The translations under genes and the position numbers were made by a program. A model generated the notes under the pieces. That model ran no database searches. It had not been told where the DNA came from and worked only from the letters and a program-made list of their open reading frames with translations. A stretch of DNA of 24,000 bases from Nitrospira sp. CR1.1 (GTDB lineage Bacteria; Nitrospirota; Nitrospiria; Nitrospirales; Nitrospiraceae), in contig WIAF01000015.1 in assembly GCA_014055465.1 (NCBI GenBank), positions 64,612 to 88,611 on the forward strand. The letters run 5' to 3'. This document shows, in pieces, positions 1 to 18,980 of the stretch (within the stretch, counting starts at the first letter, position 1; the number at the start of each line of letters is the position of its first letter).

Positions 1-283
1 CTTGTTCTCGTAATTGTTCGAGGATTTGTCCGACGGGACGCTCGCCGTCCCTGCCCAGCCGGAGATGCATGATAGTCTCCCGAAGGTACCAGATTCGCTG
101 TCCTGCATAGGCAATGGTGAGGATTGCCACAATGGAGAAAACGAGGGGGTGGATCTGTCGTCCTGTCCACCATTGAATCCATCCGTACATTGCGAGGGTG
201 ATGAAGACGAGTGAAGGGATGAGCAGGTCGCTAATTTTGTCTCGAAGTGCCTGTATTCGCTCGTCGAGGGATTGCCCCGGCAC
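1..283 (-). CDS. Partial CDS (3' end beyond the window): two predicted TM helices followed by the start of a NERD-like (nuclease-related) domain
   Basis: Minus-strand frame is open from GTG at 283 to the window edge, so it is absent from the ORF track. Translation: VPGQSLDERIQALRDKISDLLIPSLVFITLAMYGWIQWWTGRQIHPLVFSIVAILTIAYAGQRIWYLRETIMHLRLGRDGERPVGQILEQLREQ. It has two hydrophobic stretches, then an LGRDGERxVGxxLExL motif that resembles the G-x-x-GE opening of NERD domains. The start codon is uncertain (GTG 283 or ATG 190). Confidence 0.4.
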   Translation of the reverse strand, partial: MPGQSLDERIQALRDKISDLLIPSLVFITLAMYGWIQWWTGRQIHPLVFSIVAILTIAYAGQRIWYLRETIMHLRLGRDGERPVGQILEQLREQ

Positions 284-426
284 CCTAAGCGGAGGGACGT
301 TAAATGATTGGCGCCGATGCTGGAGATTGGTACGTCAGGCTGGCTCAGACATAGGCGAAGGGTTGCTTCGTTTGGCAAGGATGAGTGCGTTCCGGTAGGG
401 TGAATCTCAACGCTCTGACTTGTCCA

Positions 427-2052
427 TTAGCTGAGTATGTCGCTCAGCCGATTAAATCCAGGAGGATGCTTGAAAGCCGCGCGAATTATGCGCTCGAGTA
501 TATGAACATTCGGAACGTTGATATATGAGAGTCCGCTGTATATTTTGTCGTCTGTGGAGGAGCCAATCTGAAAATGCCCATCATTGATCCATATCTTTGT
601 ATCGTGCCACGAACACCATACCGATTCATCCCCGAACATTTTATGTTTCGTTAGCAAGACACTGTCATCTTTCACAACGACATCTCCGATGGATATTTCC
701 TCCCCGTCGCGCAATTTCCCAAGTAGGTCGATTGAAAGACGTGTGCCTACAGAGAGCCATAGTTTTTCCACAATGGACAGAAAGACAGGTTCCCGCGACA
801 GTGAGATTATTGCTTCTGATATGGAATCTCCAAACGCGATCGTATACTGTATTACGCCTGCTGACTGACGAACGCCTCCCCAGCGTACGCGTGTGATAGA
901 TGCCAAGCTGTAATTTTTGTTCTTCCACTCGATGCCTTCCGCCGAGATTCGAAACGTCTGTTTGAACAGGATTCCAATCTCAACCTGGTAGGTGATCGCG
1001 CGTCTCCATTCGTCGAGTTCTGCTACCGTTTGCTGCTGGGCTTGAATGATTTGCTGTAGAGTGGCAGCATCCTCCTCAACCCGCTCTCGAACCTCAGGCA
1101 ATTCAGCAAAAACGCTTTGAATGAGATTTGTTAAGCGCTGTGATTCCGCTACACAGCCATGCTTATTCGTCAATGTTATGGCTAGTCCTCTAATGTTAAG
1201 CGCTACCTCACGGCTGATTTCATGTTGTTGGCCTCGCGCTTTGGCGTTTAATTGAATCGGTTGAGCCACGGTATCCCAATTCCGGACTACGTGGACCAAT
1301 ACATCAATGAACTGATTAACAGCAACGCCTTTCTGTTCCGCCTCCGATTCGATGGTCGACACGATTTTCTCGATGTTGGTGGCCTCTTGCTGAAGAAATG
1401 GTTGGCTTTCTACTTCATAAGCGCCAACTACTTCATCGATCAGCATAGGTGGATTTACGCTGCCGCTCTTGGTAGCGTTATCGACCGCCAATGTAACTGC
1501 CTTAATGAGCTCAGCTGTGGGTATACGGTCTAGACACTCTTTGATCGCGGTTCGATAGTAATAAACTCGCTCTTGTAACTCGTTTGAAACGGTTTCTGCG
1601 GTTACCGGCGGAAACCCCGCTATGCTGCGATCTTCATTAAGCGAGAGGGTGATCGCCTCAGGAATGCAGTCACTAGCAAGGTTCGCCAATCGTTCAATGA
1701 GATTAGCCATCGTGAGCGCATTAACTGTATCGTCAAGACGTTCAATGGCGGCCGCGATAAGATTCGCATGAGTTAAAGCGGGCAATCCGGTTTCATCTGT
1801 AATGGACATGGGATGAGTGAGTGCTTTTTGGGCGAGTTGAGTAGCCCGATTCGGGGCTAGACCTGGCAACCAACTGAGCTCCGCTGTTAAGCGCGTACGG
1901 GGGTTGCTCAGATCAGCCCGGGCTTTTTGACAGGCTTGTGCATCGTGCTCCAGCGAACGCTCGTCGGCCAGCTCAATCAACCTCCGTCGATCATCCCTCG
2001 TCGATGCACCGAGTACCCAAAACGCGTTTTGTTCCAACGCGGTAGTGGTCAT
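427..2052 (-). CDS. 541-aa protein with a degenerate J-domain-like N-terminus (no HPD) and a beta-rich C-terminal region; last gene of the Hsp70 operon
   Basis: Long ORF whose ATG overlaps the upstream stop (ATGA at 2049-2052). The N-terminus NAFWVLGASTRDDRRRLIELADERSLEHDAQACQKARADLSNPRTRLTAELSWL follows the J-domain helix I-II / loop / helix III pattern, but EHD replaces HPD. I recognise nothing else in the protein. Confidence 0.6.
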   Translation of the reverse strand: MTTTALEQNAFWVLGASTRDDRRRLIELADERSLEHDAQACQKARADLSNPRTRLTAELSWLPGLAPNRATQLAQKALTHPMSITDETGLPALTHANLIAAAIERLDDTVNALTMANLIERLANLASDCIPEAITLSLNEDRSIAGFPPVTAETVSNELQERVYYYRTAIKECLDRIPTAELIKAVTLAVDNATKSGSVNPPMLIDEVVGAYEVESQPFLQQEATNIEKIVSTIESEAEQKGVAVNQFIDVLVHVVRNWDTVAQPIQLNAKARGQQHEISREVALNIRGLAITLTNKHGCVAESQRLTNLIQSVFAELPEVRERVEEDAATLQQIIQAQQQTVAELDEWRRAITYQVEIGILFKQTFRISAEGIEWKNKNYSLASITRVRWGGVRQSAGVIQYTIAFGDSISEAIISLSREPVFLSIVEKLWLSVGTRLSIDLLGKLRDGEEISIGDVVVKDDSVLLTKHKMFGDESVWCSWHDTKIWINDGHFQIGSSTDDKIYSGLSYINVPNVHILERIIRAAFKHPPGFNRLSDILS

Positions 2053-2747
2053 CTAATTATCCTGCTCCTCTCGCGGGGCCCTGTTTCTAAGTTCGGAGTT
2101 ACGGGATCGGAAGAGTTATGGAACCGCTTCGCACCTTCCGCTTCCAGGCGAGCGCGCTGGAGTTCCACTGCCCGTTGTGCCGCCTCATAAGTATCGTGAT
2201 GATATCGATTGTGGGAACATCGTCGATTGTAGTCGGCTATCATGCCGTCGTACCGAAAGACTTCGTACTTGTCATCAGTTTCCTGGACTTGCAGTGAGGC
2301 AGCATCGAGTCGTATCGCTTCGGCCAAGCAATATTTAAGTTGAGCAGAGGTCAAGATGCGGTCACTACCTACGGGGGGCATGTCTTCCGTAAACTCTTGC
2401 GAGAAATCGGACGGAGGAGTTGGCTTACCTGCGGCTGGTGATACTGGCCTGGAGGCACGGGGCTGAGGGGTGTTCTGGTATATGGAATAGAGGAACACCA
2501 GTACAAATACGATTCCCACGCCTGTCACGAACATTCGAACGAAAGGTCTAGGGGATTTGTCACTCGGCTGCTTTTGGCCAGTTGGATGCGAAGAACTGTG
2601 CGTGGTAGATACTACTTCGGATGGAAGACTGCTAACCGCGGCGTTTCCAGAAGATTGTGATGCCATCCAGCGGGCAACATGGACAAGACTGTCCACATCC
2701 GAAAGCATGATGGCCAATCCCTTAAAGCCAATCGCCCTGTCTTTCAT
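2049..2747 (-). CDS. Single-pass membrane protein, function unknown
   Basis: 232-aa ORF with one strongly hydrophobic segment (FVRMFVTGVGIVFVLVFLYSIY). That segment is flanked by a Ser/Pro-rich linker and a charged C-terminal domain of about 110 aa. It sits inside the operon. Confidence 0.6.
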   Translation of the reverse strand: MKDRAIGFKGLAIMLSDVDSLVHVARWMASQSSGNAAVSSLPSEVVSTTHSSSHPTGQKQPSDKSPRPFVRMFVTGVGIVFVLVFLYSIYQNTPQPRASRPVSPAAGKPTPPSDFSQEFTEDMPPVGSDRILTSAQLKYCLAEAIRLDAASLQVQETDDKYEVFRYDGMIADYNRRCSHNRYHHDTYEAAQRAVELQRARLEAEGAKRFHNSSDPVTPNLETGPRERSRIIR

Positions 2748-2773
2748 TCAAAAATAAGATCCTTTGGTTATCC

Positions 2774-4201
2774 TTAAACGAAGCCAATGCGGGCCGTGTT
2801 CGCGTTATCCGTTTGACGGGTTGGTGTTGCGTGCAAGGCCGCTAGCATATGTGCTTGCCCCAACCGTGCCTTTCCCGACCTGGCGGCCAATCGTGCGCCC
2901 TCTCGCACCATGAATGAGACATCAGACAACGGTCGTCCAGACAATGCCTTGGCGAGTGGTGTGATTTCGACATCGGGTTCAGTGGGTAAGGAAGACAGTA
3001 GGGTTGTGAGAAGATCTGCGATTTCTGGCTGAGTGGCATTCCCTACGAGGATGATATGGTCAAACCGTCCTCTTCTAAGAATGGCGGGGTCTATCATTTC
3101 AATTTTATTAGTCATGGCAACGACGAGCACTCCATGATGGACCGCTTCAGGAATCCGTCGAAGAAACTCGGCGACTTCTTCTACGCGATGATGTCCGACT
3201 CCGGGTGCTCTTTCGGCTAAGAACGCTTCCATTTCGTCAATGACGATGATTGAAGGTGAATGCTCTATGGCATCCGTAAAAACTTGAGCGACTTTTCGGC
3301 TAGTCTCGTGGATGTATGGACTCGCCACACTGGAAGCATTGATTTCGTAGCTAGGCCACCCTAAAAAATCGATCAACCGCTGCACCGCAAATGTTTTGCC
3401 ACATCCAGGTGGGCCATGAAGGACGACTGCCGATGGAAAGGTGATCCCAAGCGCCTTATAACGATCCGGATGTTCGATGATATCCACGACATGTTCGTTG
3501 AAAAACGTTTCGAGTTCTGGTCGCCCTGGTAATTCGAATCGGGCTTGGGGGGTGGTGGTACTTTTAGCGGGCTGAAGGGATGGTTGAGCGACTGCCACTG
3601 AATTGGGCGAAACGGGCTGAGAGTCCACCAGTGGTCCTTCATTGACGGAGAAGCCCGCCTCCTCAACGATATCCTTTAGGTGAGTGGCATCTAGCCAATT
3701 CAAAGTGTGAGTGAGACGCCGAAAGGATGTCACTGGGATTCGAGCACCTCCTGTGAGCCAATACCCCAACACGGTGGCATCATCGGTACAAGAACTGATG
3801 CTATAGGTAGGCAAAAGGCGTTGAAGCTTTTCGATGTAGAGTGAGTCCTGGAGCGGCGAGACACTGTCGCATGCTCTGGTCGCTTTGAGTGCGGTGGCAA
3901 AAGCAAGGGCTTCACTCTTCGAATTTGGGGCAGGTCCGGAGGAGACCGGACATAATAACTGGTCCGCAGGACTAGCGATCATAGAAAGCTGCAACGTGCC
4001 GAAGCAAAACCGAGGAAGTGTATTAGACGCTAATAAACCTGCGCAGATCCATTTTTCAGTGAGGTCTGCGGTGGCGAGCAGAGCGCGATTGCCGCCGACT
4101 GTTTGAACGATTTGCCAGCCCTGTCCCTCATACAGTGCTTGTCTCGTGGAACTACCATCGGGCAGGTGAAATCCAATTGGGAGCCAATTTACGAGCGCCA
4201 T
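2774..4201 (-). CDS. Classical-clade AAA+ ATPase (single AAA module, Cdc48/FtsH/Vps4-like) with an unrecognised N-terminal region of about 235 aa
   Basis: Walker A LHGPPGCGKT, Walker B IIVIDEMEAF, sensor-1 region VVAMTN, and second region of homology DPAILRRGRFD. The ATG lies 2 nt after the Hsp70 stop. Confidence 0.85.
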   Translation of the reverse strand: MALVNWLPIGFHLPDGSSTRQALYEGQGWQIVQTVGGNRALLATADLTEKWICAGLLASNTLPRFCFGTLQLSMIASPADQLLCPVSSGPAPNSKSEALAFATALKATRACDSVSPLQDSLYIEKLQRLLPTYSISSCTDDATVLGYWLTGGARIPVTSFRRLTHTLNWLDATHLKDIVEEAGFSVNEGPLVDSQPVSPNSVAVAQPSLQPAKSTTTPQARFELPGRPELETFFNEHVVDIIEHPDRYKALGITFPSAVVLHGPPGCGKTFAVQRLIDFLGWPSYEINASSVASPYIHETSRKVAQVFTDAIEHSPSIIVIDEMEAFLAERAPGVGHHRVEEVAEFLRRIPEAVHHGVLVVAMTNKIEMIDPAILRRGRFDHIILVGNATQPEIADLLTTLLSSLPTEPDVEITPLAKALSGRPLSDVSFMVREGARLAARSGKARLGQAHMLAALHATPTRQTDNANTARIGFV

Positions 4202-4203
4202 AG

Positions 4204-6690
4204 TTATCCAAGGACAATATTTGTTGGAGCTACCATATCGTCGTCGGCCGCGGTGCCGATCCTGGCACCCTCCAGCTGAGCAACAATGTGACGGACTTTC
4301 TCCATATCGCTCGCCCTGAGGGCTTCAGTACCGGCCGCTACCAGCTGCGCGTGTTCTTGGCAGTCAGGATATAAATGCACGGCCTCGGCAAACATCTTAA
4401 AGCGGTCAATCACGAACCAATCTTGCCTCCAAAGAATGAGGAAGTTCTTCCCGCGAAGTTCATCCAGATGCGATTCGAAGGTACTACTATAGCGCATGAT
4501 GACACTTTCAGCGGTCTTCACCAAATTTTCGAAGGTAGATATCTCCGAGGGGCGTGCGTGAGGACGCACATGCTTCTGAAAAAATGTCACAGCTTTGTCT
4601 AGTTCGAGCTGACGAATTGTCTTTAGATGTGTTTGACGAGTTTCAGCCAGCAGGCGTTTTAACTGTTGGACATCGTCGAGAGCCTGTTTGGTAGTCTCGG
4701 GATCCATCATCCCGACGGCGGTTTCAGCACGGCTCAGTCGTTCTTGGACTTCAGTCAAGCGCGGGTCGTCGACCTTTGAGACCATCTCGTCGAGGCGATC
4801 CTGGACCTGGCTGGCCTGTTCTTGAAGCAACTTGGCGGCCTTGCTGTAATCAATTTGACCCTCTTGGCGAGAATAGAAGTTTCGACTGTTTTGAAATGAG
4901 CCGCTGATTGAGGGAACTGATACTCCGAGGATGATTTGCCCGGAATCGAGAATCTCATACTCGCAGTGAAGCTCCGCTCCTGCGGATATGGCGCCATCCG
5001 AGAAATCTTGACCAGTAATTTTGAAGAGCCCGATAAAGCGATTATCCGTGATGGGGTCCTTGCAATCACCCTCCCAGAGTTTGAAATTTATTGAGTCGGC
5101 AGTGCCAGCCTTCAAGGACGTCTCAGCACGAAAGGATAATGCTCCCTTTTTGGGTAGAGGCTCGCCTTCCTGAATTAAGTAAATTAGCCCAACCGCACCG
5201 CCGATCTTGTCCTTGGCAGCGACGCCAATAGAGTGGGAAGCTGGTATGGCATCAATGGTCGCAGCTGTTCGAGATATTATCAGGTGAGACGTGTCAAGGG
5301 TTAGCGGTGACCCAGCGGCATCCAGCACATACACCTTGAAGCTATTCTCTCCCGGCCGGCTGAGGACCACGTCCACTGAGGCCCCGTCGCGAAGGGAAAG
5401 ACGACCGGAAGACCATCCGTTATCGAGACAGTCGATTTGAAACTCTGTGCCGAGGGCAATTGTGCCACTGACTTTTGCTAGAATCTTGGCTTTCAGATCA
5501 GGCGTCCGGCTTGTGTAGACAAAGGAAACCGAGACGGGTCCGCCGATCGTGATCGTTCCGCGCGATTTCTTCCGTTCTCGATTGGTTGTACTCCAGTCTA
5601 TCGATTCGGCAAATATTGCGGCCCCCTCCGCAACTGCGGTCATGGGGTTGATTTCACTCGAAGCGGCAATACCCAGTTCAGAAGATATTTTGTCGCGCAG
5701 TGGTTTGTATTGAGTGGGGCCTCCGACGAATATCATTCTTTCGACGTCTTGCGGCTCATATCCCGCTTTCCGCAAGGTAGTGCGAGCGGCCTCAATGGAA
5801 TCTAAAATTTTTGGAGCAATAAGTTCGTCAAATTCCTGTCGTTTGAACGGTACATCGACGTAAAGTTCTCTTCCGTTCTCATCTGTCAAATTGAGTTCTG
5901 TCTCGGAAAGGCTGATTAGGCTATCTTCTCGTTGTGATAACTCGATTTTAGCCTTTTCAGCCGCCCAGAGAGCCATCCGAGCCAGAGGCTTATAGCGCGA
6001 TTGCCTGTCAAACTCATCGGGTAAAGAGAAAGTGTGAAACAACCATGGCTTAACTACGGCATCGAAAATCTGGCGATCAAAGTCAGCTCCTCCGCACATC
6101 GCAATTCCGCCACCAGCTAAAAGGCTCACCCGTCCGGCTGTGCTCTGGGCGACGGCAATGTCCAGGGTGCCGCCTCCTAGGTCATAGATGCAAAAAAGGC
6201 CATCCTGCTTTCGTTGGCGCATGACGCTCATGACGGCGGCAACTGGCTCTTGCATCAGAGCGACTTGCCCGATCTGGGCAAGTGTGGCTGCAGTCGTTGT
6301 AGCGTCTTTTTGCATTTGATTGAATGCTGCTGGGACAGTGATGACAGTGCCGACTTCGTCACTATTTCGGATTTCTTCCGGTAGGTACCCAAACAGAGTC
6401 CGCAGGATTTCAGCAGAGCATTCTTCTGGCGTCATGGTGCGAGGCACAGCTGATAGATCAATTGGCGTATTAGTGCCCATGAACCGTTTAAATTTGACGG
6501 CAGCACGTTCGGGGCTTCGGGCCGCGCTTGCATATGCGCGCGAGCCGACATATTTCCCCCGTTTATCAAAAAAGATGGCTGAAGGCGTAACGTCATGTTG
6601 GTCCGGGCTCTTGTAAAGGCGTACAGTTTCACCGTTGTATGAACAAATGGCGCTATTGGTGGTGCCTAGATCGATGCCAACGTAATTCAT
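4204..6690 (-). CDS. Atypical Hsp70/DnaK-family ATPase (828 aa)
   Basis: Phosphate-1 motif GIDLGTTNS at the N-terminus, phosphate-2 IYDLGGGTLDIAV, and adenosine motif FVGGPTQYKPLRDKI. A DnaK-like beta substrate-binding segment is present (IDAIPASHSIGVAA ... NFKLWEGD ... NRFIGLFKITG). It is about 190 aa longer than DnaK. Confidence 0.9.
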   Translation of the reverse strand: MNYVGIDLGTTNSAICSYNGETVRLYKSPDQHDVTPSAIFFDKRGKYVGSRAYASAARSPERAAVKFKRFMGTNTPIDLSAVPRTMTPEECSAEILRTLFGYLPEEIRNSDEVGTVITVPAAFNQMQKDATTTAATLAQIGQVALMQEPVAAVMSVMRQRKQDGLFCIYDLGGGTLDIAVAQSTAGRVSLLAGGGIAMCGGADFDRQIFDAVVKPWLFHTFSLPDEFDRQSRYKPLARMALWAAEKAKIELSQREDSLISLSETELNLTDENGRELYVDVPFKRQEFDELIAPKILDSIEAARTTLRKAGYEPQDVERMIFVGGPTQYKPLRDKISSELGIAASSEINPMTAVAEGAAIFAESIDWSTTNRERKKSRGTITIGGPVSVSFVYTSRTPDLKAKILAKVSGTIALGTEFQIDCLDNGWSSGRLSLRDGASVDVVLSRPGENSFKVYVLDAAGSPLTLDTSHLIISRTAATIDAIPASHSIGVAAKDKIGGAVGLIYLIQEGEPLPKKGALSFRAETSLKAGTADSINFKLWEGDCKDPITDNRFIGLFKITGQDFSDGAISAGAELHCEYEILDSGQIILGVSVPSISGSFQNSRNFYSRQEGQIDYSKAAKLLQEQASQVQDRLDEMVSKVDDPRLTEVQERLSRAETAVGMMDPETTKQALDDVQQLKRLLAETRQTHLKTIRQLELDKAVTFFQKHVRPHARPSEISTFENLVKTAESVIMRYSSTFESHLDELRGKNFLILWRQDWFVIDRFKMFAEAVHLYPDCQEHAQLVAAGTEALRASDMEKVRHIVAQLEGARIGTAADDDMVAPTNIVLG

Positions 6691-7139
6691 ATGTGCGCCT
6701 TTCGAAGCATCACTGTTCCGGCTCTTTTTAGACCTGTGGGGCCCATGATAATCGGTTCGATCATCTGATCAATTAGTAGGGGTGCGTCGGATGGGAAGTC
6801 GGCAAGGTTGACAGGGTCGGCAGCAATTCCAGAATCAAAGGGCTGACCTTCTAGGTTGACGAGCGTCAGCCCAACAGCCTGAAGCTTTTCTTCTATTTTC
6901 CGGTGAAAGTATCGAAGTTGATTCGCATAGCGATCACCATCTCCAGCATCAAGTCTAGAAAGGACCTTTTGAAATAGTTTCGCGAATCGCCAACTTTCGA
7001 TGGTCATTTCGATTATGAGTTGCTGATAGGAGCCAACTGTGAGGTCGTCGCTATTGCGATCCATTTTTTTAGTAGACGTATCTGAATACAAATGCCGGGA
7101 TTGAAGAAAGCACGTCACTGCAGTGAACGGGCTCACCAT
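6687..7139 (-). CDS. Short GrpE-like nucleotide-exchange-factor candidate
   Basis: 150-aa ORF overlapping the Hsp70 start (ATGA). The C-terminal half, LQAVGLTLVNLEGQPFDSGIAADPV...IDQMIEPIIMGPTGLKRAGTVMLRKA, resembles the GrpE pattern (G-x-x-FDP ... hydrophobic ... R-x-A-x-V-x-V). It lacks the long N-terminal coiled coil. Start uncertain (ATG 7139 or ATG 7064); no clear SD. Confidence 0.45.
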   Translation of the reverse strand: MVSPFTAVTCFLQSRHLYSDTSTKKMDRNSDDLTVGSYQQLIIEMTIESWRFAKLFQKVLSRLDAGDGDRYANQLRYFHRKIEEKLQAVGLTLVNLEGQPFDSGIAADPVNLADFPSDAPLLIDQMIEPIIMGPTGLKRAGTVMLRKAHI

Positions 7140-7332: not shown

Positions 7333-7760
7333 TTTGGCCGTTCCGATGGCGAGTGCCGGATCGGAATGAACGCATTGTTCCATGCGTCTGGTTTGCTCCG
7401 TGAGGTAGCGGGCGTCGATGGCGGCGGCTGTCCGCTTTAGAGGATCGAAGTTGACCTTTCCCGCGAGGAGGCGATGGCCGATTCTCTTGCAGGTTTCAAT
7501 CAGTTTATTCTGTTCCGAGCTTATTTCGTCGGAGGGGGATGCGCTCCTATATATGTGATAAGAGCAGTGATCGCTTTGCCAGCCAGATGATCCGGCGCCA
7601 AAGGTCCGAAAGTACGCAGCTTCTTGGACTTTGATGATCCCTGAGATGGATATTTTGAGTCGTGGGTATCGATGCCTACAGCATCGGCCATGAAGCGGCC
7701 AAATGTTGTATCAGACAAGTTGAGCACATAGCCGCTGACCGAGTGGAACGGTTCGTTCAA
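7333..7760 (-). pseudogene. Frameshifted and 3'-truncated Abi-like (AbiJ N-terminal / Abi_C type) abortive-infection gene remnant
   Basis: The 79-aa ORF (7521-7760) carries SGYVLNLSDTTFGRFMADAVGIDTHDSKYPSQGSSKSKKLRTF. I recall the GYVLDFS..F..F...IDIYD.KY...SKA.RLR.F N-terminal domain from Abi-type proteins. After its stop, an adjacent frame reads on as SEQNKLIETCKRIGHRLLAGKVNFDPLKRTAAAIDARYLTEQTRRMEQCVHSDPALAIGTAK. That ends in the Abi_C-like DP..AIG.AK motif, after which similarity is lost near 7333. Confidence 0.4.
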
Positions 7761-7794: not shown

Positions 7795-8136
7795 TCATGA
7801 GTGAACTGTTGCTGTTTCAGCGTCGATCGCCGTCAGGCCTGCGACTTCAACAGGCGGATGATCCGGGAATTTTGCGATGATCGACAGGCTGCCTCCCATG
7901 GCTTCGATGTAGCTGCGCAGTGTTGAAATCAAGAGGTCGCTGCGCTTTTCGAGGCGGGACACCCCTTCCTGTCCGATGCCGAGGGTTTCGGCAATGCGTT
8001 CCTGGGTGTGCCTGTGGGCCTGGCGCAATTCACGCAAGGTCATTTCCTGCGCGATCAGTTGAGCCGCGCGCGCTTCGACCTTCTTCCGGCGCGCCGCCGG
8101 CAGCTTCTTCATTTTATCTTTCAGTGTGGTAGCCAT
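7795..8136 (-). CDS. XRE-family HTH antitoxin (HigA-like)
   Basis: MATTLKDKMKKLPAARRKKVEARAAQLIAQEMTLRELRQAHRHTQERIAETLGIGQEGVSRLEKRSDLLISTLRSYIEAMGGSL is the typical architecture of antitoxins paired with the toxin below. I prefer the ATG at 8136 over the track start at 8181, because 8181 would overlap the toxin gene. Confidence 0.8.
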   Translation of the reverse strand: MATTLKDKMKKLPAARRKKVEARAAQLIAQEMTLRELRQAHRHTQERIAETLGIGQEGVSRLEKRSDLLISTLRSYIEAMGGSLSIIAKFPDHPPVEVAGLTAIDAETATVHS

Positions 8137-8140
8137 GATG

Positions 8141-8470
8141 TTAATTCTTTCGTTTTCTCGTCGCGCCAAGATGCCGGTCAAACCTGTTGTCGGCCTTGCG
8201 GATCAACTCTTTGTAAAACTGCTTTTCACTTCCACCTGACTTGTCTGCGGCAACGAGCACGACGGCACGGCGGCGGCGATCAAAGGCAAAAGCCACCCGC
8301 CAGACCCCATCCGCGGCATTGAACCTCAGCTCCTTCATATTCGCATGCCTGGAGCCTTTTGGGGTGTCGGCCCATGGGTGTCCGAGTACAGGGCCGAATT
8401 CCCCGAGAAGGTGAAGATGAGCCAGCAGCTCGTCGAACTCCAGGGCCAAGTCTGTATAAAAATGCAACAT
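8141..8470 (-). CDS. RelE/ParE-superfamily (HigB-like) type II toxin
   Basis: HLLGEFGPVLGHPWADTPKGSRHANMKELRFNAADGVWRVAFAFDRRRRAVVLVAADKSGGSEKQFYKELIRKADNRFDRHL matches the recalled family pattern (GP.LGRP..DT.KGSRH.NMKELR ... R..FAFDPRR.A.LLVAGDKSG ... Y...I..AD..Y..HL). Gene order is toxin first. Probable start is ATG 8470 (MLHFYTD...) rather than 8521. Confidence 0.75.
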   Translation of the reverse strand: MLHFYTDLALEFDELLAHLHLLGEFGPVLGHPWADTPKGSRHANMKELRFNAADGVWRVAFAFDRRRRAVVLVAADKSGGSEKQFYKELIRKADNRFDRHLGATRKRKN

Positions 8471-8486
8471 CTCATGCCACAGAACA

Positions 8487-8515
8487 AGTATGCCTTTAAA
8501 TACATATGTTTTCAA
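8487..8515 (-). promoter_or_regulatory. Possible sigma70-type promoter for the TA pair
   Basis: Minus strand reads TTGAAA (8515-8510), a 17-nt spacer, then CATACT (8492-8487). The spacer contains the 8-bp palindrome ACATATGT, a possible operator. The resulting leader to ATG 8470 would be very short, so this is tentative. Confidence 0.25.
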
Positions 8516-8782
8516 TAACATGATCTGCCTTTAATATATTCCTGTGCATAATGATTCAAATATGGATCCTGGCGTTTCCGTTCGATTTTCTGTGGGAGCG
8601 GGGCCATAAAGGCATGGGCAGTTGGGCGGGGTAGGGGTGAGATAGATCAAGGGGGTAGGATCCCAACACCTAATTTCAAAGGGAAGCAATTTGTCTACGC
8701 GCATTGTAAGCTCCCGGTAAATCACGACACTCAGTAAGGAGAACGTTTTGGCACAATAGTCACCCTCAGCTGGGAGGTTCCC

Positions 8783-9581
8783 ATTCGCCAGTCGAAGTTC
8801 ACTGAAACGCAGATTGTCTCCATTCTGAAAGAGGCTGACGCCTGTCGCCCGGTCAATGAGATCTGGCGGTACTACGGCATCAGCTCCGCCACGTCCGACA
8901 AGTGGAAAGCCAAGGATGGCGGTCGGAAGCTTCTGATGTGAATCGGCTGAAAGAATTGGAACAGGAGAATAGCCACCTCAAGCGGATGTATGCGGATTTG
9001 TCGTTTAAGAATCTGGCCCTGAAGGATTTCATCGCAAAAAAGCTCTAAGGCCTGCTGAACGGCGGGAGGTCGTCACGCATCTGGTGACGGTCAATGGCCT
9101 TCCGGTTCAGCGGGCCTGTCGTGCCGTGGGATTGCATCGAGCCACATACTATCGGCCGCTCATGGATTGAGTGCGGCAGGATGCGCCGGTAATTGCCGCG
9201 CCCACGACGCTCGTGGCAGCGAAGAGTCGCTGGGGCTTCTGGAAATGTTATGCCCGTCTGCGGCTCGATGGGCATCCCTGGAATCACAAGCGACTCTAGC
9301 GGGTGTACGGGCAGCTCCGACTGAATCTGCCTCGTCAGACGAGGAAGCGGCTACCAGTTCGAGTTCGACAACCGCCCGTCGTCGTCCCACAACCCAACGC
9401 CGTGTGGACCATCGACTTCATGAGGGACACCTTGTATGACGGACGACGATTCCGAACCCTCAATATTCATGACGAAGGCGTGCGGGAGGGCCTGACCATC
9501 GAAGTGGATACGTCGCTACCCGCTGAGCGCGTGGTGCGCGTCTTGGAACAGGTCGTCGCCTGGCGGGGACGGCCGCAGGCC
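8783..9581 (+). mobile_element. Decayed, 3'-truncated IS3-family insertion sequence (orfA/orfB pseudogenes)
   Basis: OrfA-like IRQSKFTETQIVSILKEADACRPVNEIWRYYGISSATSDKWKAK sits behind an SD (GGGAGG 8772-8777), but ATT stands where ATG is expected. A frameshift near 8932-8941 precedes the leucine-zipper part SDVNRLKELEQENSHLKRMYADLSFKNLALKDFIAKKL. The IS3-type slippery heptamer AAAAAAG is at 9036-9042. OrfB-like sequence (RPAERREVVTHLV...GLHRATYYRP ... PNAVWTIDFMRDTLYDGRRFRTLNIHDEGVREGLTIEVDTSLPAERVVRVLEQVVAWRGRPQA) has in-frame TGA and TAG stops. It ends before the expected DNGPEF/DDE continuation. Confidence 0.8.
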
Positions 9582-10055
9582 ACGTATCGGACCAATCTTG
9601 AAGCCCGAAGTGTTCCATTATCAGTGCCGCCTTGACGGGGGAGCTTACAGTTCAGGGAGGTCTCTGGGGGGATTGCTTTTCAAACCCAAGTTTCAGCGTT
9701 CTGCTTTGCTACTTGCAATGAGCCAAATGAGTGGAGGCTCGCCGTGACTCCAGAACAGCAATCACCGGTAAGTGCTGCTGACTCCATATTCGCAAGAGTC
9801 ATAGCAGCAATAACGGCATGGAAGGCAATAATGATTGTCAACCTTCCTGGTTATGCAGTGAGCAGCTCCGGATGCTTGACTCCATAGAGATATAAGTCTA
9901 CTGTCATCCCAGGTAATTCACTGTAGTTGTACGTATCGCTACGTCGAAAATCGCCCAATTACCGAGTACCGCTGGCAGGAGACGTGACGCTCCTTACATC
10001 CGGAATCACTCGAGAAGACAATCAGTAGCACATATCAATCTATCTAGGAGGCAGA

Positions 10056-10856
10056 ATGTATTCCAGGATAGCACCGGCAATAGCACTCGCATGTATTCTG
10101 AGCGGTTGTACGGGTGTACGCTTCGCGAATCAAACTGTGGACGACGGTCTTCCTAATGACTATACCAACCGCACACGCATAGCCAATTCTGCAGATTACC
10201 GATTCAATTTGCCAGATAATATTGGAGCAATTTTGGAGGAAGATCCGACTAAGCCTGGCTTATACAGGTTGGCAGCTACGAGTGTTATTCGTCCCGAGGG
10301 ATTCAATCCGAAAGAAATATTTTTGGCCAAGGAGGACAATCAAGTTTACAACGGAAAAGTCACTGCTGGAGGCCAGACATCTGGGAATTATACTGCAGTT
10401 GGATTGTCTCTTGAGGCCAATCAAGTGGCAGAAATTTCGATAGTCGACGTGTCCCGTGCAGATATCCCCACACCAGAAATTCCGGTGGCCGCACTTCACA
10501 ATTATGCACAGACTAAGCCTGCTCAGAAGCAGTATTGGATAAAAAGTCTTTTGCTGTCGCGATTGCTAAAGAGGATATATGTCGAACAAAAAGCGGATTT
10601 TGCAGCGTCTGGTCCTGCCTTCGGAGCGAATGGGAAGGTATATGGGACAACAGCTATTCAGTCGAACGACTTTAATTTAACGGCTGTATTAATTGATATT
10701 GATACATACAAAACCACAAAGCCGCATATCACTGACAAATCCTTCGGTGACGACCTATCTACAAATGTGCCCGGAGTGGTAACTCTCAGGTCACTATGCG
10801 CACAGCCACTCAAAAGCAACTCGACTCCGGGCTCTATTTCTAATTGTCCTCGCTAA
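10056..10856 (+). CDS. Lipoprotein, function unknown
   Basis: SD AGGAGG lies 5 nt upstream. The signal peptide has a lipobox (MYSRIAPAIALACILSGC). I recognise no domain. Confidence 0.7.
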   Translation: MYSRIAPAIALACILSGCTGVRFANQTVDDGLPNDYTNRTRIANSADYRFNLPDNIGAILEEDPTKPGLYRLAATSVIRPEGFNPKEIFLAKEDNQVYNGKVTAGGQTSGNYTAVGLSLEANQVAEISIVDVSRADIPTPEIPVAALHNYAQTKPAQKQYWIKSLLLSRLLKRIYVEQKADFAASGPAFGANGKVYGTTAIQSNDFNLTAVLIDIDTYKTTKPHITDKSFGDDLSTNVPGVVTLRSLCAQPLKSNSTPGSISNCPR

Positions 10857-11142
10857 TTTGGGATACCGACGGAGACATGAGTAAATGGAAAATCACAGTG
10901 GCAGTAGGGCCATGGCGCAAATACCAGGACTTCTGCCACGTTCTAACTAGATCATCTAAAAGCGTATGCCGCTCGCTTTCGTTCTGACGCTTTTCCCAAA
11001 TAGGAAAGGTGAGTCGAATTCGGTCCATCGTTATTTGCCAGAAGGTTCTCATTTTTATGCAGAATCGATCTGCGAGCAGCTTGCGCTTTTGTCTTCGGAG
11101 ACGTGAGAGGTGGCCTTTTCCGTTTAGATCGGGATTAAGAGC

Positions 11143-12114
11143 TTACTTCCAGAGACCACAGGCTTCAGACCGTTTTTTATTAAAAATCGGATTTGATTTC
11201 ACTACACCCTCGCAGAAATATTTATAGGTATCATGAAAAAAAGGATCGCGTTGATGCTCCTCACGAGTCGAAGTGACCTCTGCTACAGAGCCTTGAGTTT
11301 GAGCTTGAATCCCCGCCGCAATTTTTCTGCATTCTGCCTCTGGATTGCTTCCCCCATCTAACCAACTAGTATTATCCTTCCATGGCTGTATAGATTGCCA
11401 TTTCTCAACACCATGGGTGTTGTGACGACAAGTTGAGTAACAAGCTTCTGGAAACGGAATCTCCGATTCAATTCCTGCCAATGCATTTCTCTTAGAAATA
11501 AGATTAATCGCAAGTGAGATCGGGACTATATCGTTATTTTCTGTGCCAGGTAATGTCCCGCCTTGCACCAATCCCATCACTCTCCCGTCCTCATTAAATA
11601 CTGGCCCCCCACTAAACCCACCCTCAAGAAAACCATCTACTTTGTGAAATCCTCTTTCGGACTGCAAGTTAATTATCGAAGAACTAGCCGAGGTCAAACC
11701 AAGGTGGGCGGGAAAGCCCAAGGCTAATACCGATTCCTGAACTTCTGCATTTTTCTTAGTCAGCGTAACAGTGTGTTTGCATGTCTGAGATTGAGGGAAT
11801 TGCCATAAAGCAACATCATTTATTTCGTCCACTTCTCTAAGGACTAGAGGGAACCGTGTGCCAAAGCGCGCTCCCACTGTCGACCACATCGTCTGATTCG
11901 GGCTCGCTTTGAGATGCGCCACTGTTACGACATAGCCGTCATGCGACACAACAAATCCTGTTCCAGAATTGACTACTTGACTAGTTTCGTTATCAGTTAC
12001 TTCTAGGTACACGATTGCCGGCGTATTGATTTCCAGAATTTCTTTTTTGGTCGCGGCAAAACTTTGAGCTGAAGTCGCTAACAACAATAGAGCTAACCAA
12101 GCAATCGCTTGCAT
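11143..12114 (-). CDS. Secreted trypsin-like (S1 family) serine protease with a Cys-rich C-terminal extension
   Basis: Signal peptide MQAIAWLALLLLATSAQSFA. Catalytic-triad contexts are GTGFVVSHDGYVVTVAHL (His), NDVALW (Asp) and GFSGGPVF (Ser). SD AGGAGG overlaps the stop of the upstream gene. The tail of about 100 aa contains 5 Cys. Confidence 0.8.
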   Translation of the reverse strand: MQAIAWLALLLLATSAQSFAATKKEILEINTPAIVYLEVTDNETSQVVNSGTGFVVSHDGYVVTVAHLKASPNQTMWSTVGARFGTRFPLVLREVDEINDVALWQFPQSQTCKHTVTLTKKNAEVQESVLALGFPAHLGLTSASSSIINLQSERGFHKVDGFLEGGFSGGPVFNEDGRVMGLVQGGTLPGTENNDIVPISLAINLISKRNALAGIESEIPFPEACYSTCRHNTHGVEKWQSIQPWKDNTSWLDGGSNPEAECRKIAAGIQAQTQGSVAEVTSTREEHQRDPFFHDTYKYFCEGVVKSNPIFNKKRSEACGLWK

Positions 12115-12122
12115 GACTCCTC

Positions 12123-12875
12123 CTAAACAATCCTAATGTAAGTATTAAACTTTATATCTACAGGGACGCGTTTTTTATTTATCGTTCTTTTTGTCCTGAC
12201 TGCATCTAATGCATACGGTGTTTGGCAAATCCTAGAGTTCTTTTCTTTGGTTTGGTTGCCGCCAAGGCATACAATTTGAGTGTCGGTTGGATTTGGTAGT
12301 TTAGCTAAGAATGCAACATGTCCTAGTCCAACAGACTTTGTGGTGTTGATCTCATAGCAAGTAAATACTGCAAGATCACCTATCTTTGGTATTTTTGTCT
12401 GTTCGAAGAAGTTTTCGTTCAGGAATGATTGAGATTTCGGACTGCCGCTCGTCTGTCGGCCAGAACGTTTTAAGCACCAATTCACAAAAGCTGCACACCA
12501 CGGAGTCAGATCATTTTCGGCCCTATAGTTTGTAGCACTAAAAAATTCGACAATTAAGGGATTCCATGAGGCGGCTTGTGGCCACTGGGTTATAACCTCA
12601 GCGTCTGTTTTCTCAAAGCTCAGAAAGTAATTTGCTATGTCGTAAGGTGCTTTGCCTTTAGGGGCACCCTCCCAGATCGCCTTTGCCCTCTTGTATTGCT
12701 CCTTGTCGGGTGCATGCGTGCCAAACGGTCTAGACTCATTAATTAGATCGAACGACGGATACTGAAGCTCGTCCAGTGTATCTTGTGCATCATCCGCCGC
12801 TCTTCCTAATGATGGCGCACGCAACAAGAATGGTAATGTGACGGCTAGGCGGATAAACGACCGGCGGGAGTGCAT
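12123..12875 (-). CDS. Tat-exported CHAP/NlpC-P60-like cysteine peptidase (TIGR02594-like, probable cell-wall hydrolase)
   Basis: Twin-arginine signal MHSRRSFIRLAVTLPFLLRAPSLGRA. The catalytic Cys context is TPWCAAFVNWCLKRSG. The downstream GDLAVF ... GLGHVAFL provides the His context. This pattern is as recalled for the TIGR02594/CHAP-like family. Confidence 0.65.
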   Translation of the reverse strand: MHSRRSFIRLAVTLPFLLRAPSLGRAADDAQDTLDELQYPSFDLINESRPFGTHAPDKEQYKRAKAIWEGAPKGKAPYDIANYFLSFEKTDAEVITQWPQAASWNPLIVEFFSATNYRAENDLTPWCAAFVNWCLKRSGRQTSGSPKSQSFLNENFFEQTKIPKIGDLAVFTCYEINTTKSVGLGHVAFLAKLPNPTDTQIVCLGGNQTKEKNSRICQTPYALDAVRTKRTINKKRVPVDIKFNTYIRIV

Positions 12876-13266
12876 AAGTGTACCCTTTTTATTTTATGAG
12901 TGAATTGTCTGGGCGGAGCTTGCCAGATGGCTCTGCGAGCTCTCTAAATAAAAAGCGGTGAGAGAGGCCACAAGCCTCAGCCCGAGCCGATTGTGGTAAT
13001 GTCAATTTGTTCGCCGACTACCAAGGTGGTCAGCGCCCATCACGTAATCAGGTGTCATATGCCCCACCTGAATATTCAGCTAGCAGGCTCCGCCAGGACT
13101 AAGTTCTCAATAGGTGCTACGGAATAGTTGCGAATTGTTCGATATTCTTGATGCCGCAAGATGCAGCATCGAGAACGTCCTTTTCTTCACTACGACGATT
13201 ATATGCAAATAGACGTATGTACACCAGATGCAAAAAATGCATGTATATACAGTTCAGTAGTACATT

Positions 13267-13563
13267 TTAAGACCTTTCACGCCTGATCGCCCGAAAGAAC
13301 GCGGCCTGAGTCTCCGCAAGGCTCATCGGTACGAATGTCGAGGTTAAAGGCATGGTAGCCTCACGTGTCCTAGGTTTCGGTGCTGCGTGGGCTAACGGCC
13401 CTGTCCGTTTCGCCCCTGGACGGCCCGCCCCATTAGTGAGGCGGGCCAACGCCAACCGCTTGAAGTGACGGCTGCGTTGATACGGGGGAAGCCGAACTAG
13501 CCACCGAAACAGTCGCATATCGTCCGCTGACTTCTCCGAGAAATAAACTGTGACTCTAGGCAT
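13267..13563 (-). CDS. Small basic protein, ParR-like (possible ribbon-helix-helix) partner of ParM
   Basis: ATG 13563 overlaps the ParM stop by 8 nt. MPRVTVYFSEKSADDMRLFRWLVRLP... is compatible with a beta-strand then helix (RHH) start. Position downstream of parM matches parMR organisation. The 174-aa track ORF is an unlikely N-terminal extension inside parM. Confidence 0.45.
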   Translation of the reverse strand: MPRVTVYFSEKSADDMRLFRWLVRLPPYQRSRHFKRLALARLTNGAGRPGAKRTGPLAHAAPKPRTREATMPLTSTFVPMSLAETQAAFFRAIRRERS

Positions 13564-14629
13564 GCGAGGCCTTCTGTGCAGACGCGTCACCCTGTGGGGA
13601 ATCCTCAGCCCCCTGATCCTGCGCGCGTGTCTGATCTGTACTGGTGAGGCGGATGTATTCCAGATAGCCGGCCGCATTGGTGAACTGACTCTCCGGCAGA
13701 ATCGAATAGTCGTCTCTGAAGTGGCCGAGATAGGAAGCGAGCAGAGCTGATCCGCCGCCACAGTAAAGCAAGTGATCGATGCCTGGTGCACCTTCCTTCC
13801 ACAGTCGTGTCATCTCGTTGTGGAGCCTCGTAGCCAACGGTCGCACATAATGCTGAACCAGCGCCTCTAAGGCTTGCCGCTCGACCACACCCCCTTTAAT
13901 CTTGATCGGCTTGTCCTCGCGCAACGCCCAGTCCACCTCGTAGGCATCAATCGGTCGTTGATGTTGGGAAGACAATTTCTGGGCCACTTGTGTATACACC
14001 TGTCCAACCCCCAACACGACCCCCGCCGATTCGTGGTTCAAGTACTGTCCATTGGAGAAACAAATGAGTTCCGTTGTGCGGCTGCCGATATCGACTAAGG
14101 CCACCCGTCCTTGCGCGAGTGCGGAGTTGGTGCTGATCGCGAGGCACAGCGCGCCGAATCCTTGAGGTAAGACGGCCACGGCGGGAGCTTTGAGCGCCTT
14201 CCGGAAGACGTCGCTAATTTGGTGCTGGGCCCGCTGAGAGCCGAAGATATGTAGGGGAATGCCTGTCACGATGCGGGAGCCTGGTGGAACGAAGTTGGCG
14301 CCGGCATAGTGCAGCAGCGCTTTGTAGCGCGTGGTCATCCACCAGCCGTCATATTCCTCGCTAAAGCGAAACCCACGGGTCACTGCCGCTTGGCCAACAA
14401 TATACTCTGCACCCTCGAGTTTCACGGTCTCCTGGGGATCGGACAAGCTCAGGTCGATATTGGAGAGCTCCGCCGGCGCCACCAGAGACGGGAAGACGTG
14501 CGCCTGTCCCTCCTGAGTCAGGATCTTCGTGTATCCATACCCGACGTCGATCGCGACCCATGGAGCCGAGGACGCGGGGCGTTGGCGTCCACGAGACGCT
14601 TTCGGTTGTTCAACAGTCGCCTTACTCAT
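13556..14629 (-). CDS. parM: ParM/StbA-like actin-fold segregation ATPase
   Basis: SD GGAGG upstream. Actin-fold phosphate motifs are WVAIDVGYGYTKIL and ALVDIGSRTTELI, and the adenosine motif is LLYCGGGSALL. Confidence 0.75.
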   Translation of the reverse strand: MSKATVEQPKASRGRQRPASSAPWVAIDVGYGYTKILTQEGQAHVFPSLVAPAELSNIDLSLSDPQETVKLEGAEYIVGQAAVTRGFRFSEEYDGWWMTTRYKALLHYAGANFVPPGSRIVTGIPLHIFGSQRAQHQISDVFRKALKAPAVAVLPQGFGALCLAISTNSALAQGRVALVDIGSRTTELICFSNGQYLNHESAGVVLGVGQVYTQVAQKLSSQHQRPIDAYEVDWALREDKPIKIKGGVVERQALEALVQHYVRPLATRLHNEMTRLWKEGAPGIDHLLYCGGGSALLASYLGHFRDDYSILPESQFTNAAGYLEYIRLTSTDQTRAQDQGAEDSPQGDASAQKASHA

Positions 14630-18161: not shown

Positions 18162-18980
18162 TTACTGGCCAGGGGCAGGTGTCACCTGTGAGTGGCGCAA
18201 GCGTGGAGGCAGAATGGAGAGGGGTAACTCAGGAAAAAAGACATGATTGGTGGCTGCGTGGCGCGCGAAGAAGTCAACGCGTGCATTACCGTACTCTCCG
18301 TTATGCGCCTGGATTTTGGTCCATGTGATGCGGACTCTGGAGGATGCCACTCGCTCACGATAGCGTTGTGTCCGGACCGCATTGGTCCGCCACGTGCCGT
18401 TCGCCCAATGGGCGAGGCCGGTGTAGTCAAACCGAATCTCGATGTCCGTGCAGTCATGAGCCCGACACCATTCTAGGACCTGTTCGACCGCGTGACACTC
18501 CCCGGCCACGTTGCGAAGACTCAATGCGTCTGGGTGTGAGATGGAGCCGGCCTGGCCGTCGATGGATTGGCCCTCGCGCCAAATTTCGAAAGCCCAGCCA
18601 ATGTGCGCGTTGTGGTCTTGCTCGCAATAGGAGCCATCGACGTAGGCAACAGTCGATCCTGCTGCCTGTGTAATGGGAGCCACCAGAGGCATGGGGTGTG
18701 GGAGCAGCAGCGTATGAAACTCTTGGAGTAGCACATCGTACAAACCATCCGGCCAGTTCTTGCCCTCCTTCACGAACGAGGTCTTGTCTTTGCCCACATA
18801 GAGGACCGCGTGCAGCGTGTGGGGAAGGGAGGGATGAGCGAGCGATACCTTGTGACCGTAGTTAACTGGGGCACCGACGGTGGCCGTGTATCCGGACTGT
18901 GTTAGTCGACCGATGAATGTGTCGGCAAGCCGTCGGGCCTGCTCGCTTGCACGCTGGGCCTGGGTGTGGTGTGGGATCAT
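18162..18980 (-). CDS. RNase H (type 1) domain protein with an unrecognised N-terminal domain of about 120 aa
   Basis: GGAGG lies 5 nt before ATG 18980, preferred over the track start 19052. The DEDD-type contexts are VAYVDGSY, GECHAVEQ, IEIRFDY and AHNGEYGNARVDFFA. Confidence 0.7.
   Translation of the reverse strand: MIPHHTQAQRASEQARRLADTFIGRLTQSGYTATVGAPVNYGHKVSLAHPSLPHTLHAVLYVGKDKTSFVKEGKNWPDGLYDVLLQEFHTLLLPHPMPLVAPITQAAGSTVAYVDGSYCEQDHNAHIGWAFEIWREGQSIDGQAGSISHPDALSLRNVAGECHAVEQVLEWCRAHDCTDIEIRFDYTGLAHWANGTWRTNAVRTQRYRERVASSRVRITWTKIQAHNGEYGNARVDFFARHAATNHVFFPELPLSILPPRLRHSQVTPAPGQ

Follow-up and report, generated by a model that had tools for sequence, protein, structure and literature searches.

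A mobile operon joining an atypical Hsp70, a Cdc48-like AAA+ ATPase and a tagged membrane protein: a candidate bacterial conflict system

The subject of this report is a five-gene operon in a 24,000-nucleotide (nt) stretch of Nitrospira sp. CR1.1 DNA (contig WIAF01000015.1, positions 64,612 to 88,611 of the forward strand), referred to here, at its full length, as the window. Five minus-strand open reading frames (ORFs), named A to E in the order A-B-C-D-E, span positions 7139 to 427 and encode a small protein, an atypical Hsp70 of 828 amino acids (aa), an AAA+ ATPase, a bitopic membrane protein and a large partner protein. A previous sequence-only reading of this DNA had described the genes as translationally coupled, and all the overlaps and gaps were confirmed on the letters: the A/B and D/E junctions are ATGA overlaps at 6687-6690 and 2049-2052 (read directly), the B/C gap is 2 nt (4202-4203) and the C/D gap 26 nt (2748-2773). 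A promoter and terminator scan gave a number of sites not above that of shuffled sequence. The genes and their parts are as follows.

6687-7139, minus: gene A, small subunit, a 150-aa ORF
4204-6690, minus: gene B, 828-aa atypical Hsp70
5605-6681, minus: nucleotide-binding domain of the Hsp70, aa 4-362 (Pfam)
4207-5604, minus: C-terminal half of the Hsp70, with a beta-rich insert, a beta domain like a substrate-binding domain and a long helical region
2774-4201, minus: gene C, 475-aa single-module classical AAA+ ATPase (Pfam AAA)
3632-4201, minus: orphan N-domain of the AAA+ protein, aa 1-190, well conserved
3041-3427, minus: AAA+ module core, aa 259-387, followed by the second region of homology
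2777-2794, minus: conserved C-terminal tail of the AAA+ protein, ARIGFV, consensus RRIGF[VI] (28 orthologues aligned)
2049-2747, minus: gene D, 232-aa bitopic membrane protein, a short variant of its family
2691-2729, minus: N-terminal cytoplasmic tag of D, GFKGLAIMLSDVD, family consensus KGFAGLSSLVSDVD
2478-2543, minus: transmembrane helix of D, aa 69-90, a hydrophobic stretch in the sequence
2103-2390, minus: conserved periplasmic domain of D, about 90 aa with two invariant cysteines (34-sequence alignment)
427-2052, minus: gene E, 541-aa universal Hsp70 partner
1729-2052, minus: N-terminal helical 'J-like' domain of E, lacking HPD
430-990, minus: C-terminal tandem beta-sandwich plus helix (PH-like) domains of E, from the secondary structure of a model

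The product of gene A probably begins at M26 (nt 7064) and not at 7139, giving a protein of about 125 aa, because its relatives are about 124 aa long (range 123-125 aa).

A Pfam scan of the five proteins found an Hsp70 domain in B and an AAA domain in C, and no family match for A, D or E. The operon proteins gave domain-level AAA matches alone (IetA, TRIP13) in PADLOC, and the literature searched in full text held no description of such a gene set. The view that the genes form no named defence system is thus upheld; the module matches no described system and appears to be undescribed.

We examined the distribution of the operon through its Hsp70. Full-length relatives number in the thousands, with an almost constant length, and a scan that took a single genome from each species found relatives in at least 285 of them. 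Eighty loci from other species, with Hsp70 identities of 57-67%, were kept; they come from about nine phyla and show the same genes in the same order outside the source genome. The lineages are the alpha-, beta- and gammaproteobacteria (Pseudomonadota), Desulfobacterota, Planctomycetota, Acidobacteriota, Verrucomicrobiota, Nitrospirota and Armatimonadota. Gene content was counted in the 55 loci that extend 8 kb or more beyond the start of the Hsp70 gene. A, B, C and E occur in every one of them (55/55) and D in 52; 47 of the 55 have the order ABCDE and 5 the order ABCE..D. Gene A always lies directly upstream of the Hsp70 gene and overlaps it. A seemingly extra gene between D and E in some relatives proved to be a longer D or E.

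Gene B was confirmed as an atypical Hsp70. Pfam HSP70 covers aa 4-362 (E-value 1e-53), and the phosphate-1 motif, K68, E148, the phosphate-2 motif (D170-T175) and the adenosine motif (G323-G324) are invariant in 12 relatives, which places the protein in the Hsp70 superfamily (PF00012) by its nucleotide-binding domain (NBD). With these catalytic motifs intact, B is predicted to be ATPase-competent. It falls outside DnaK, HscA and HscC, scoring 192-195 bits against NCBIfam equivalog cut-offs of 620-822; named bacterial Hsp70s are about 550-640 aa long. No interdomain linker of the DVLLLD type was seen in its sequence, and beyond the NBD neither Pfam nor the PDB offers a sequence match for the C-terminal half. 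In an AlphaFold2 (AF2) model of this half the helices are good and the beta part is poor (predicted local distance difference test, pLDDT, 58), and a Foldseek search with this low-confidence model returned top-50 PDB matches that were all Hsp70 substrate-binding domains (SBDs), with E-values of about 1e-4. We interpret B as an Hsp70 that is divergent yet complete, with a beta-rich insert, an SBD-like domain and a long helical tail. The protein is conserved along its full length, with a mean column identity of 87%, and its C-terminal end, ...NIV(R/L)(S/G), is likewise conserved.

Gene C encodes a AAA+ protein whose Pfam AAA match covers aa 259-387 (E-value 3e-28). The Walker A motif GPPGCGKT, the Walker B residues DE, the pore loop Y-I-H and the RRGRFD arginine fingers are invariant in 28 orthologues, and the closest solved relatives are Cdc48, p97, VAT, NVL and AFG2 (E-values 1e-62 to 1e-55). 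The protein belongs to the classical clade of AAA+ ATPases (PF00004) and is Cdc48/p97-like, with one ATPase module, unlike Cdc48; it lies far below the cut-offs of every named AAA family in NCBIfam. These features are those of a predicted single-ring Cdc48/p97-like unfoldase. Profile searches found no Pfam or PDB relative of its N-domain, so that the earlier description, a single-module classical AAA+ protein with an N-domain of no known kin, holds. The conserved RRIGF[VI] tail is similar to docking tails of the HbYX type or to peptides that bind Hsp70, and might conceivably act as a docking peptide.

The small subunit A represents a family of 749 clusters at 50% identity that has no Pfam model, and profile searches that included the PDB gave no Pfam, NCBIfam or PDB match. 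When its helix-plus-beta C-terminal part was aligned by hhalign with the GrpE C-terminal domain, using GrpE sequences entered by hand, the P-value was 5.7e-4 and the probability 29%. The score of 29.5 compares with 12.3 ± 2.3 in 200 column shuffles, none of which reached it. The long N-terminal helix of GrpE is missing from A, since the protein is only about 125 aa long. Resemblance of A to the GrpE C-terminal domain is thus moderately supported, the match being suggestive and not proof; of the former GrpE-like label, this one profile-profile match stands, and Pfam and PDB add nothing to it.

The AF2 model of the large partner E (mean pLDDT 89) is helical in its N-domain and its middle part and has tandem PH-like domains at the C-terminus, and a Foldseek search of the model against the PDB and viral structures gave nothing at E-value ≤ 0.001. 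The best domain-level Foldseek match for the C-terminus is the tandem PH of Rtt106 (probability 0.72, not significant), and in two relatives a transmembrane tail takes the place of this PH-like region. The N-terminal consensus is NPFxxLGATTRDxRRxIVELAEEKSLELDHDxCQKARSDLTNPRxRL. Aligned with the J domain by hhalign, it gave a probability of 5.9% over 28 columns (helices I-II), a score reached by 0 of 200 shuffles; against the PDB, the N-domain showed no J-domain match and a single weak match to a RecR helix-hairpin-helix-like structure (E-value 0.1). There is no HPD, and the loop where it would lie varies among 28 orthologues, with no conserved substitute. Hence, of the proposal of a J-like N-terminus lacking HPD, the missing HPD is secure and the J likeness is weak; with neither a Pfam match nor HPD, E falls outside the J-domain proteins (PF00226).

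Gene D encodes a single-pass membrane protein, as had been proposed, with one transmembrane helix. A 14-residue N-terminal tag is followed by a flexible low-complexity tether, the helix and a domain of 90 aa. The strict tag pattern is present in 42/59 D proteins, with near-matches in most others, and the same tag recurs on extra operon-encoded envelope proteins (clusters 3 and 9). Proteins of the D family are 202 to 718 aa long. Of 49 longer relatives, 24 contain PG_binding_1, 4 PG_binding_2, 2 SLT and 1 SH3_3, and several have Cys-rich repeats. These extracytoplasmic domains follow the helix, which argues for a periplasmic, wall-directed C-terminus in D. The D protein of the window has the 90-aa core domain alone, without an enzymatic or binding module. 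This domain, for which a profile search found no PDB relative, was aligned across 34 sequences including a distant Sinorhizobium branch, and its two invariant cysteines suggest a disulfide-type domain. The tag and the peptidoglycan-binding domains of the relatives had been missed in the sequence-only reading. The idea that the tag tracks the presence of the AAA+ protein was dropped, as the few available branch comparisons were uninformative.

In about 20 loci the operon is extended by secreted, membrane and RDD-family proteins. At L087:19578-23385, for example, the genes that follow E encode in turn a protein of 214 aa, a secreted protein of 165 aa, a tagged membrane protein of 350 aa, another secreted protein of 218 aa, an RDD-family protein and a membrane protein of 92 aa; an N-terminal MAYEDPNAPS motif is common to the RDD-family and 92-aa proteins. 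Equivalents were found in L019, L022, L024, L026, L040, L042, L049 and L053. Pfam scans of the extra operon proteins F, G, H and I gave RDD and sub-threshold matches alone.

Sister branches of the operon carry the A domain in other contexts. In some it forms the C-terminal part of EVE-domain or HSDR_N-domain proteins, whose genes overlap the Hsp70 start:

L091:1696-2925, L092:1279-2508 and L090:8001-9590: A-fusion proteins, EVE-A and HSDR_N-A

The EVE-A branch keeps the Hsp70, the AAA+ protein and an E fused to GYF_2 and a zinc ribbon; a separate GYF_2 protein is encoded upstream in this branch. The HSDR_N-A branch keeps the Hsp70 and E, and A, Hsp70 and E are all retained in these three loci (L090-L092), which are without D. 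Other A-domain proteins (P0413, P0435, P0424, P0401) have one or several N-terminal transmembrane helices and a low-complexity linker, so that in their branches the exchange-factor-like subunit is predicted to be membrane-anchored. The branch on Sinorhizobium meliloti pSymA (L088:4773-11777), with an Hsp70 at 34% identity, has the order p577 (nucleotidyltransferase-like, with a GDVDLEVH motif), E-like, D-like, A-like, Hsp70, p86. The AAA+ protein is missing from this branch, its D-like protein is without the tag and its E-like protein without PH domains, and it adjoins a TaqI-like enzyme and a UvrD-helicase/ATP-dependent endonuclease pair (Gabija-like by annotation). Since the distant Sinorhizobium, EVE-A and HSDR_N-A branches all keep them, A, Hsp70 and E constitute the universal core, the engine of the system, and the AAA+ protein and the tagged wall-binding D are its commonest additions. 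Fusion of A to EVE, a modified-base reader, or to a restriction-nuclease-like domain suggests one engine with various sensor or effector heads. Neither this core nor the fusions had been noticed in the sequence-only reading.

The surroundings of the operon are variable. Clustering of the flanks found no flanking gene conserved across loci; P4-type integrases, in 12 loci, make up the largest cluster, and excisionase-like and WYL proteins come next. Exact copies of the window proteins are present on a 72.7-kb contig (L001), beside TraN of an F-type type IV secretion system and SLT genes, and the carrier of the window copy is accordingly classed as a conjugative element. On an Aeromonas caviae IncP plasmid the operon lies directly after TnsABCDE, as Tn7-like cargo, and four further plasmids carry it. 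Among 5,426 complete E. coli genomes a single one has the operon, in a CP4-like island where its neighbours are IS3, RADAR rdrB, a fragment of dptF and the remnant of an integrase. No match came from a megablast search with the locus against plasmids and E. coli genomes, and a protein search of phage genomes returned DnaK-type NBD matches alone and no full-length copy, an absence that we take as neutral. The earlier suggestion of an accessory, horizontally moving module is borne out, because the spread at 57-67% identity over about nine phyla, the unconserved flanks, the mobile carriers and the rarity in E. coli all point the same way. Nor do the loci occupy one syntenic core position: conserved flanks are lacking, and defence or mobile genes are frequent neighbours in qualitative terms.

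Defence genes near the operon were sought with PADLOC among 242 neighbour proteins within 6 kb at about 45 loci. Strong matches were Hhe/PDC-S37 (4 loci) and PDC-M27C (2 loci), together with type I restriction-modification, AbiEii, SoFic, PDC-S21, PD-T7-1, PD-T7-5, NsnA, C3a139 and type II methyltransferases. A giant DUF4011/MTES_1575 helicase-nuclease (Hhe/PDC-S37 in PADLOC) stands beside a WYL regulator immediately upstream of the operon in L007, L010, L042, L044 and L061, a recurrence that may reflect a shared island type or a functional pairing.

Within the window, PADLOC found no complete known defence system, and the following features accompany the operon.

1-283, minus: NERD-domain membrane protein gene (Pfam NERD), continuing at L001:10443-11200
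7795-8181, minus: HTH_3 antitoxin-like gene, overlapping the HigB-like gene
8141-8521, minus: HigB-like Gp49 toxin
9303-9635, plus: rve integrase core fragment, an IS3-type remnant
10056-10856: putative lipoprotein, in a low-GC stretch
11143-12114: secreted trypsin-like peptidase, in the same stretch
12123-12875: CHAP-domain protein, in the same stretch
13556-14629, minus: ParM-like actin (ALP_N)
18162-19052, minus: RNase H-domain protein
20249-21730, minus: RRXRR+HNH endonuclease

The NERD gene begins 144 nt downstream of E, as previously noted. It had been considered a possible nuclease effector; it is interrupted by an in-frame stop after '...KPLHGHSK' and stands next to none of the 80 other loci, and these two observations rule it out as an effector or component of the system. 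It is probably a pseudogene and, for the same reasons, a mere lineage-specific neighbour. Domain scans recovered the HigBA-like pair (Gp49 and HTH) and the IS3 remnant (rve fragment) that the sequence-only reading had placed beside the operon. Its 'Abi pseudogene' was not recovered, the 79-aa ORF at 7521-7760 (minus) having no Pfam or PADLOC match. The HigB-like/HTH_3 pair lies just upstream of the operon and is also present on the Logan contigs L001 and L004. Positions 10000-12900 are low in GC (44-46%, compared with 51-60% elsewhere) and possibly represent a separate cargo module with cell-wall-directed activity. The ParM-like, RNase H and RRXRR-HNH genes are typical of a plasmid or integrative conjugative element (ICE) backbone, consistent with the TraN and SLT genes on contig L001.

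We compared the operon with systems of known composition. By analogy, its working would come closest to a combination of the DnaK-GrpE-ClpB bi-chaperone with membrane extraction of the Cdc48 type. With DnaK-GrpE-DnaJ/ClpB it shares intact Hsp70 motifs, a putative SBD-like domain, a small neighbour with a suggested likeness to the GrpE C-terminal domain and a pore-loop AAA+ partner. However, its Hsp70 lies far below the equivalog cut-offs and is without the canonical linker, there is no HPD J-protein, and its AAA+ protein is single-ring and Cdc48-like, whereas ClpB is a two-ring Hsp100 with an M-domain; moreover, the operon has private membrane partners and is mobile and rare, not core. The likeness to Cdc48/p97 extraction (endoplasmic-reticulum-associated degradation; Msp1/FtsH-type dislocation) consists of a Cdc48-like AAA+ protein, a bitopic candidate substrate with a flexible cytoplasmic tail and an Hsp70 in the pathway; the ring of the operon, in contrast, is single, with an unrelated N-domain, there is no ubiquitin-like tagging, the setting is bacterial and mobile, and extraction itself is inferred. 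The mitochondrial import motor (mtHsp70, Mge1, Tim44, Pam18/Pam16) is similar in having a membrane-proximal Hsp70, a GrpE-type factor and an HPD-less J-like protein, and the membrane anchoring predicted for the exchange-factor-like subunit in some branches adds to the likeness. This is an analogy only, as the operon lacks a translocation channel, has a AAA+ protein in addition and has no demonstrated homology in its membrane parts.

Other comparisons were made with defence systems. GTPase-centric conflict systems carry their own HSP70 and GrpE and a co-chaperone-like adaptor, and comprise a GAP1-N2 TRAFAC GTPase and an FNIII-repeat protein fused to DnaJ/TPR, with an actinobacterial and firmicute distribution (Kaur, Burroughs, Iyer, Aravind 2020, PMC7159879). 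They thus resemble the operon as predicted conflict systems equipped with an Hsp70, an exchange factor and a co-chaperone-like adaptor, but have no Cdc48-like AAA+ protein and no tagged peptidoglycan-binding protein, and no GTPase, FNIII, DnaJ or TPR domain occurs in the five proteins. Hsp70-like domains in CoCoNuT/McrBC (PMC11090510) and in DnaK-like-EACC1 protease fusions (PMC12642450) are further precedents in defence. In these, the Hsp70-type domain is fused to McrB/McrC or to a protease-effector module and has lost its lid or has degenerate ATPase motifs (PMC11090510, PMC12642450), and in CoCoNuT a McrB-type NxD GTPase and a McrC/DUF2357 partner accompany an Hsp70-like unit that is fused or adjacent (PMC11090510). 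The Hsp70 of the operon, in contrast, is free-standing, with intact catalytic motifs and its own cofactors and no protease, and McrB/McrC domains are absent from the operon and its conserved neighbours.

IetA, a AAA+ defence ATPase, is the best PADLOC match, through the AAA module alone; the operon is nevertheless not IetAS (Gao_Iet), as it scores 71 bits against the NCBIfam IteA_antiphage cut-off of 510 and contains no IetS protease. The likeness to Zorya is conceptual, a peptidoglycan-binding membrane component coupled to cytoplasmic effectors, and the MotAB-like ZorAB proteins are missing. The transmissible locus of protein quality control, or locus of heat resistance, contains small heat-shock proteins, ClpK/ClpG, an FtsH paralogue and a DegP-type protease, none of which was found among the operon proteins or the scanned ORFs of the window. 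The operon therefore belongs to none of DnaK/HscA/HscC, IetAS, CoCoNuT/McrBC-Hsp70, the GTPase-centric systems or the heat-resistance islands, because the defining components of each are absent here, and none of the known precedents for Hsp70 in defence has its architecture.

Mobile carriers, defence neighbours, competent ATPase motifs, the link to membrane and wall and the EVE/HSDR_N heads together support a reading of the operon as a widespread mobile conflict system, directed against phages or mobile elements, with a dedicated Hsp70 cycle at the inner membrane face. We place the probability of this reading at roughly 45%. In such a system, A would serve as the exchange factor for B, and E as a targeting or regulatory cofactor, a stand-in for a J-protein without HPD chemistry that is probably sited at the membrane. 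The tag of D would be a client peptide, bound either by the Hsp70 or by the N-domain of the AAA+ protein. The trigger might be proteins that accompany infection, or damage to the envelope that the wall-bound domain senses; the unfoldase would then thread the tagged tail and pull or extract D, or remodel E. The resulting change in envelope integrity would stop the infected cell or the invader. In the sister branches, nucleic-acid-directed heads would replace the envelope output.

Several points weigh against a conflict role. For genes in an arms race, the Hsp70, the AAA+ protein and A show unusually strong conservation (the mean column identity of the Hsp70 is 87%), and the five-gene version has no toxin or nuclease domain recognisable in Pfam, PADLOC or NCBIfam scans. 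The GrpE-like and J-like homologies are weak, the SBD assignment leans on a low-confidence model (pLDDT 58), and the client-tag and pulling steps are pure inference. Furthermore, the evidence from defence neighbours is qualitative, because it comes without matched control loci, and the neighbours include the housekeeping genes for TGT, QueA and aconitase. The specific mechanism put forward in the sequence-only reading, an Hsp70 sensor or clamp coupled to nuclease effectors, finds no support. We regard as tentative, and somewhat doubtful, the bolder proposal of a new class of immunity in which tagged bitopic proteins give an Hsp70 cycle and a Cdc48-like unfoldase a mechanical link from the cytoplasm to the wall, with re-use of this Hsp70 engine under EVE or nuclease heads in the sister branches.

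The strong purifying selection on all cytoplasmic components and the lack of a toxin or nuclease domain in the five genes would both suit the main rival, a mobile envelope or proteostasis module in which the Hsp70, its exchange factor and a Cdc48-like extractase clear or repair damaged membrane and wall-associated proteins, raising stress tolerance with no part in conflict. A make-up of chaperone and unfoldase with intact catalytic motifs, partners that are envelope proteins and the established precedent of mobile stress islands are also consistent with it. General quality control, however, would have no need of a private tagged client family, and the fusions of A to EVE and restriction-nuclease-like domains, the repeated adjacency to defence systems, the extreme rarity within E. 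coli and the absence of the usual heat-resistance-island genes from the operon and the scanned ORFs of the window fit it poorly; we consider this explanation unlikely, yet a serious one.

Sharing of one tag by up to three operon-encoded envelope proteins brings in a further explanation, a self-contained machine for biogenesis or turnover, in which the Hsp70 and AAA+ protein insert, hold or recycle their own tagged wall-binding proteins of the D and H types, and the output (adhesion, wall remodelling or surface exclusion) is wholly that of those proteins. The secreted, membrane and RDD-family proteins of the extended operons, the varying periplasmic domains and the frequent carriage on conjugative elements agree with it. 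It appears improbable, given that the D-less branches (L090-L092) retain A, Hsp70 and E, that the D of the distant branch is without the tag and that the D of the window has its 90-aa core domain only. Least probable of all is an addiction or stabilisation module akin to toxin-antitoxin-chaperone (TAC) systems, with the Hsp70 restraining a toxic D or E: the operon does sit on plasmids, ICEs and transposons, a HigBA-like pair adjoins it in the window, and 10.1101/2024.02.24.581848 offers a precedent in chaperone-dependent toxin-antitoxin systems with antiphage roles, but 7 kb and five to eleven genes are far above the size of an addiction module, no similarity to SecB-type TAC components was found in Pfam, PADLOC or NCBIfam scans, and the idea overlaps with an abortive-infection version of the conflict reading and does not exclude it.

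The operon defines a large, sharply delimited family with a fixed set of partners, three of whose five proteins have no Pfam family, and its hosts include Pseudomonas, Aeromonas, Legionella, Serratia and E. coli. Should it serve envelope proteostasis as a mobile module, these hosts would have in it a transferable determinant of stress tolerance of a new kind. If the conflict reading is correct and the operon serves in defence, it would be the first such system based on a complete Hsp70 cycle and a Cdc48-like unfoldase, and a bacterial counterpart of the logic of membrane extraction and of the import motor in eukaryotes. Under either reading, the N-terminal tag, the orphan N-domain of the AAA+ protein and the E protein provide direct handles. 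If the proposed class of immunity is real, Hsp70 would take its place as a general sensor and actuator of bacterial immunity, like the STAND and MoxR ATPases.

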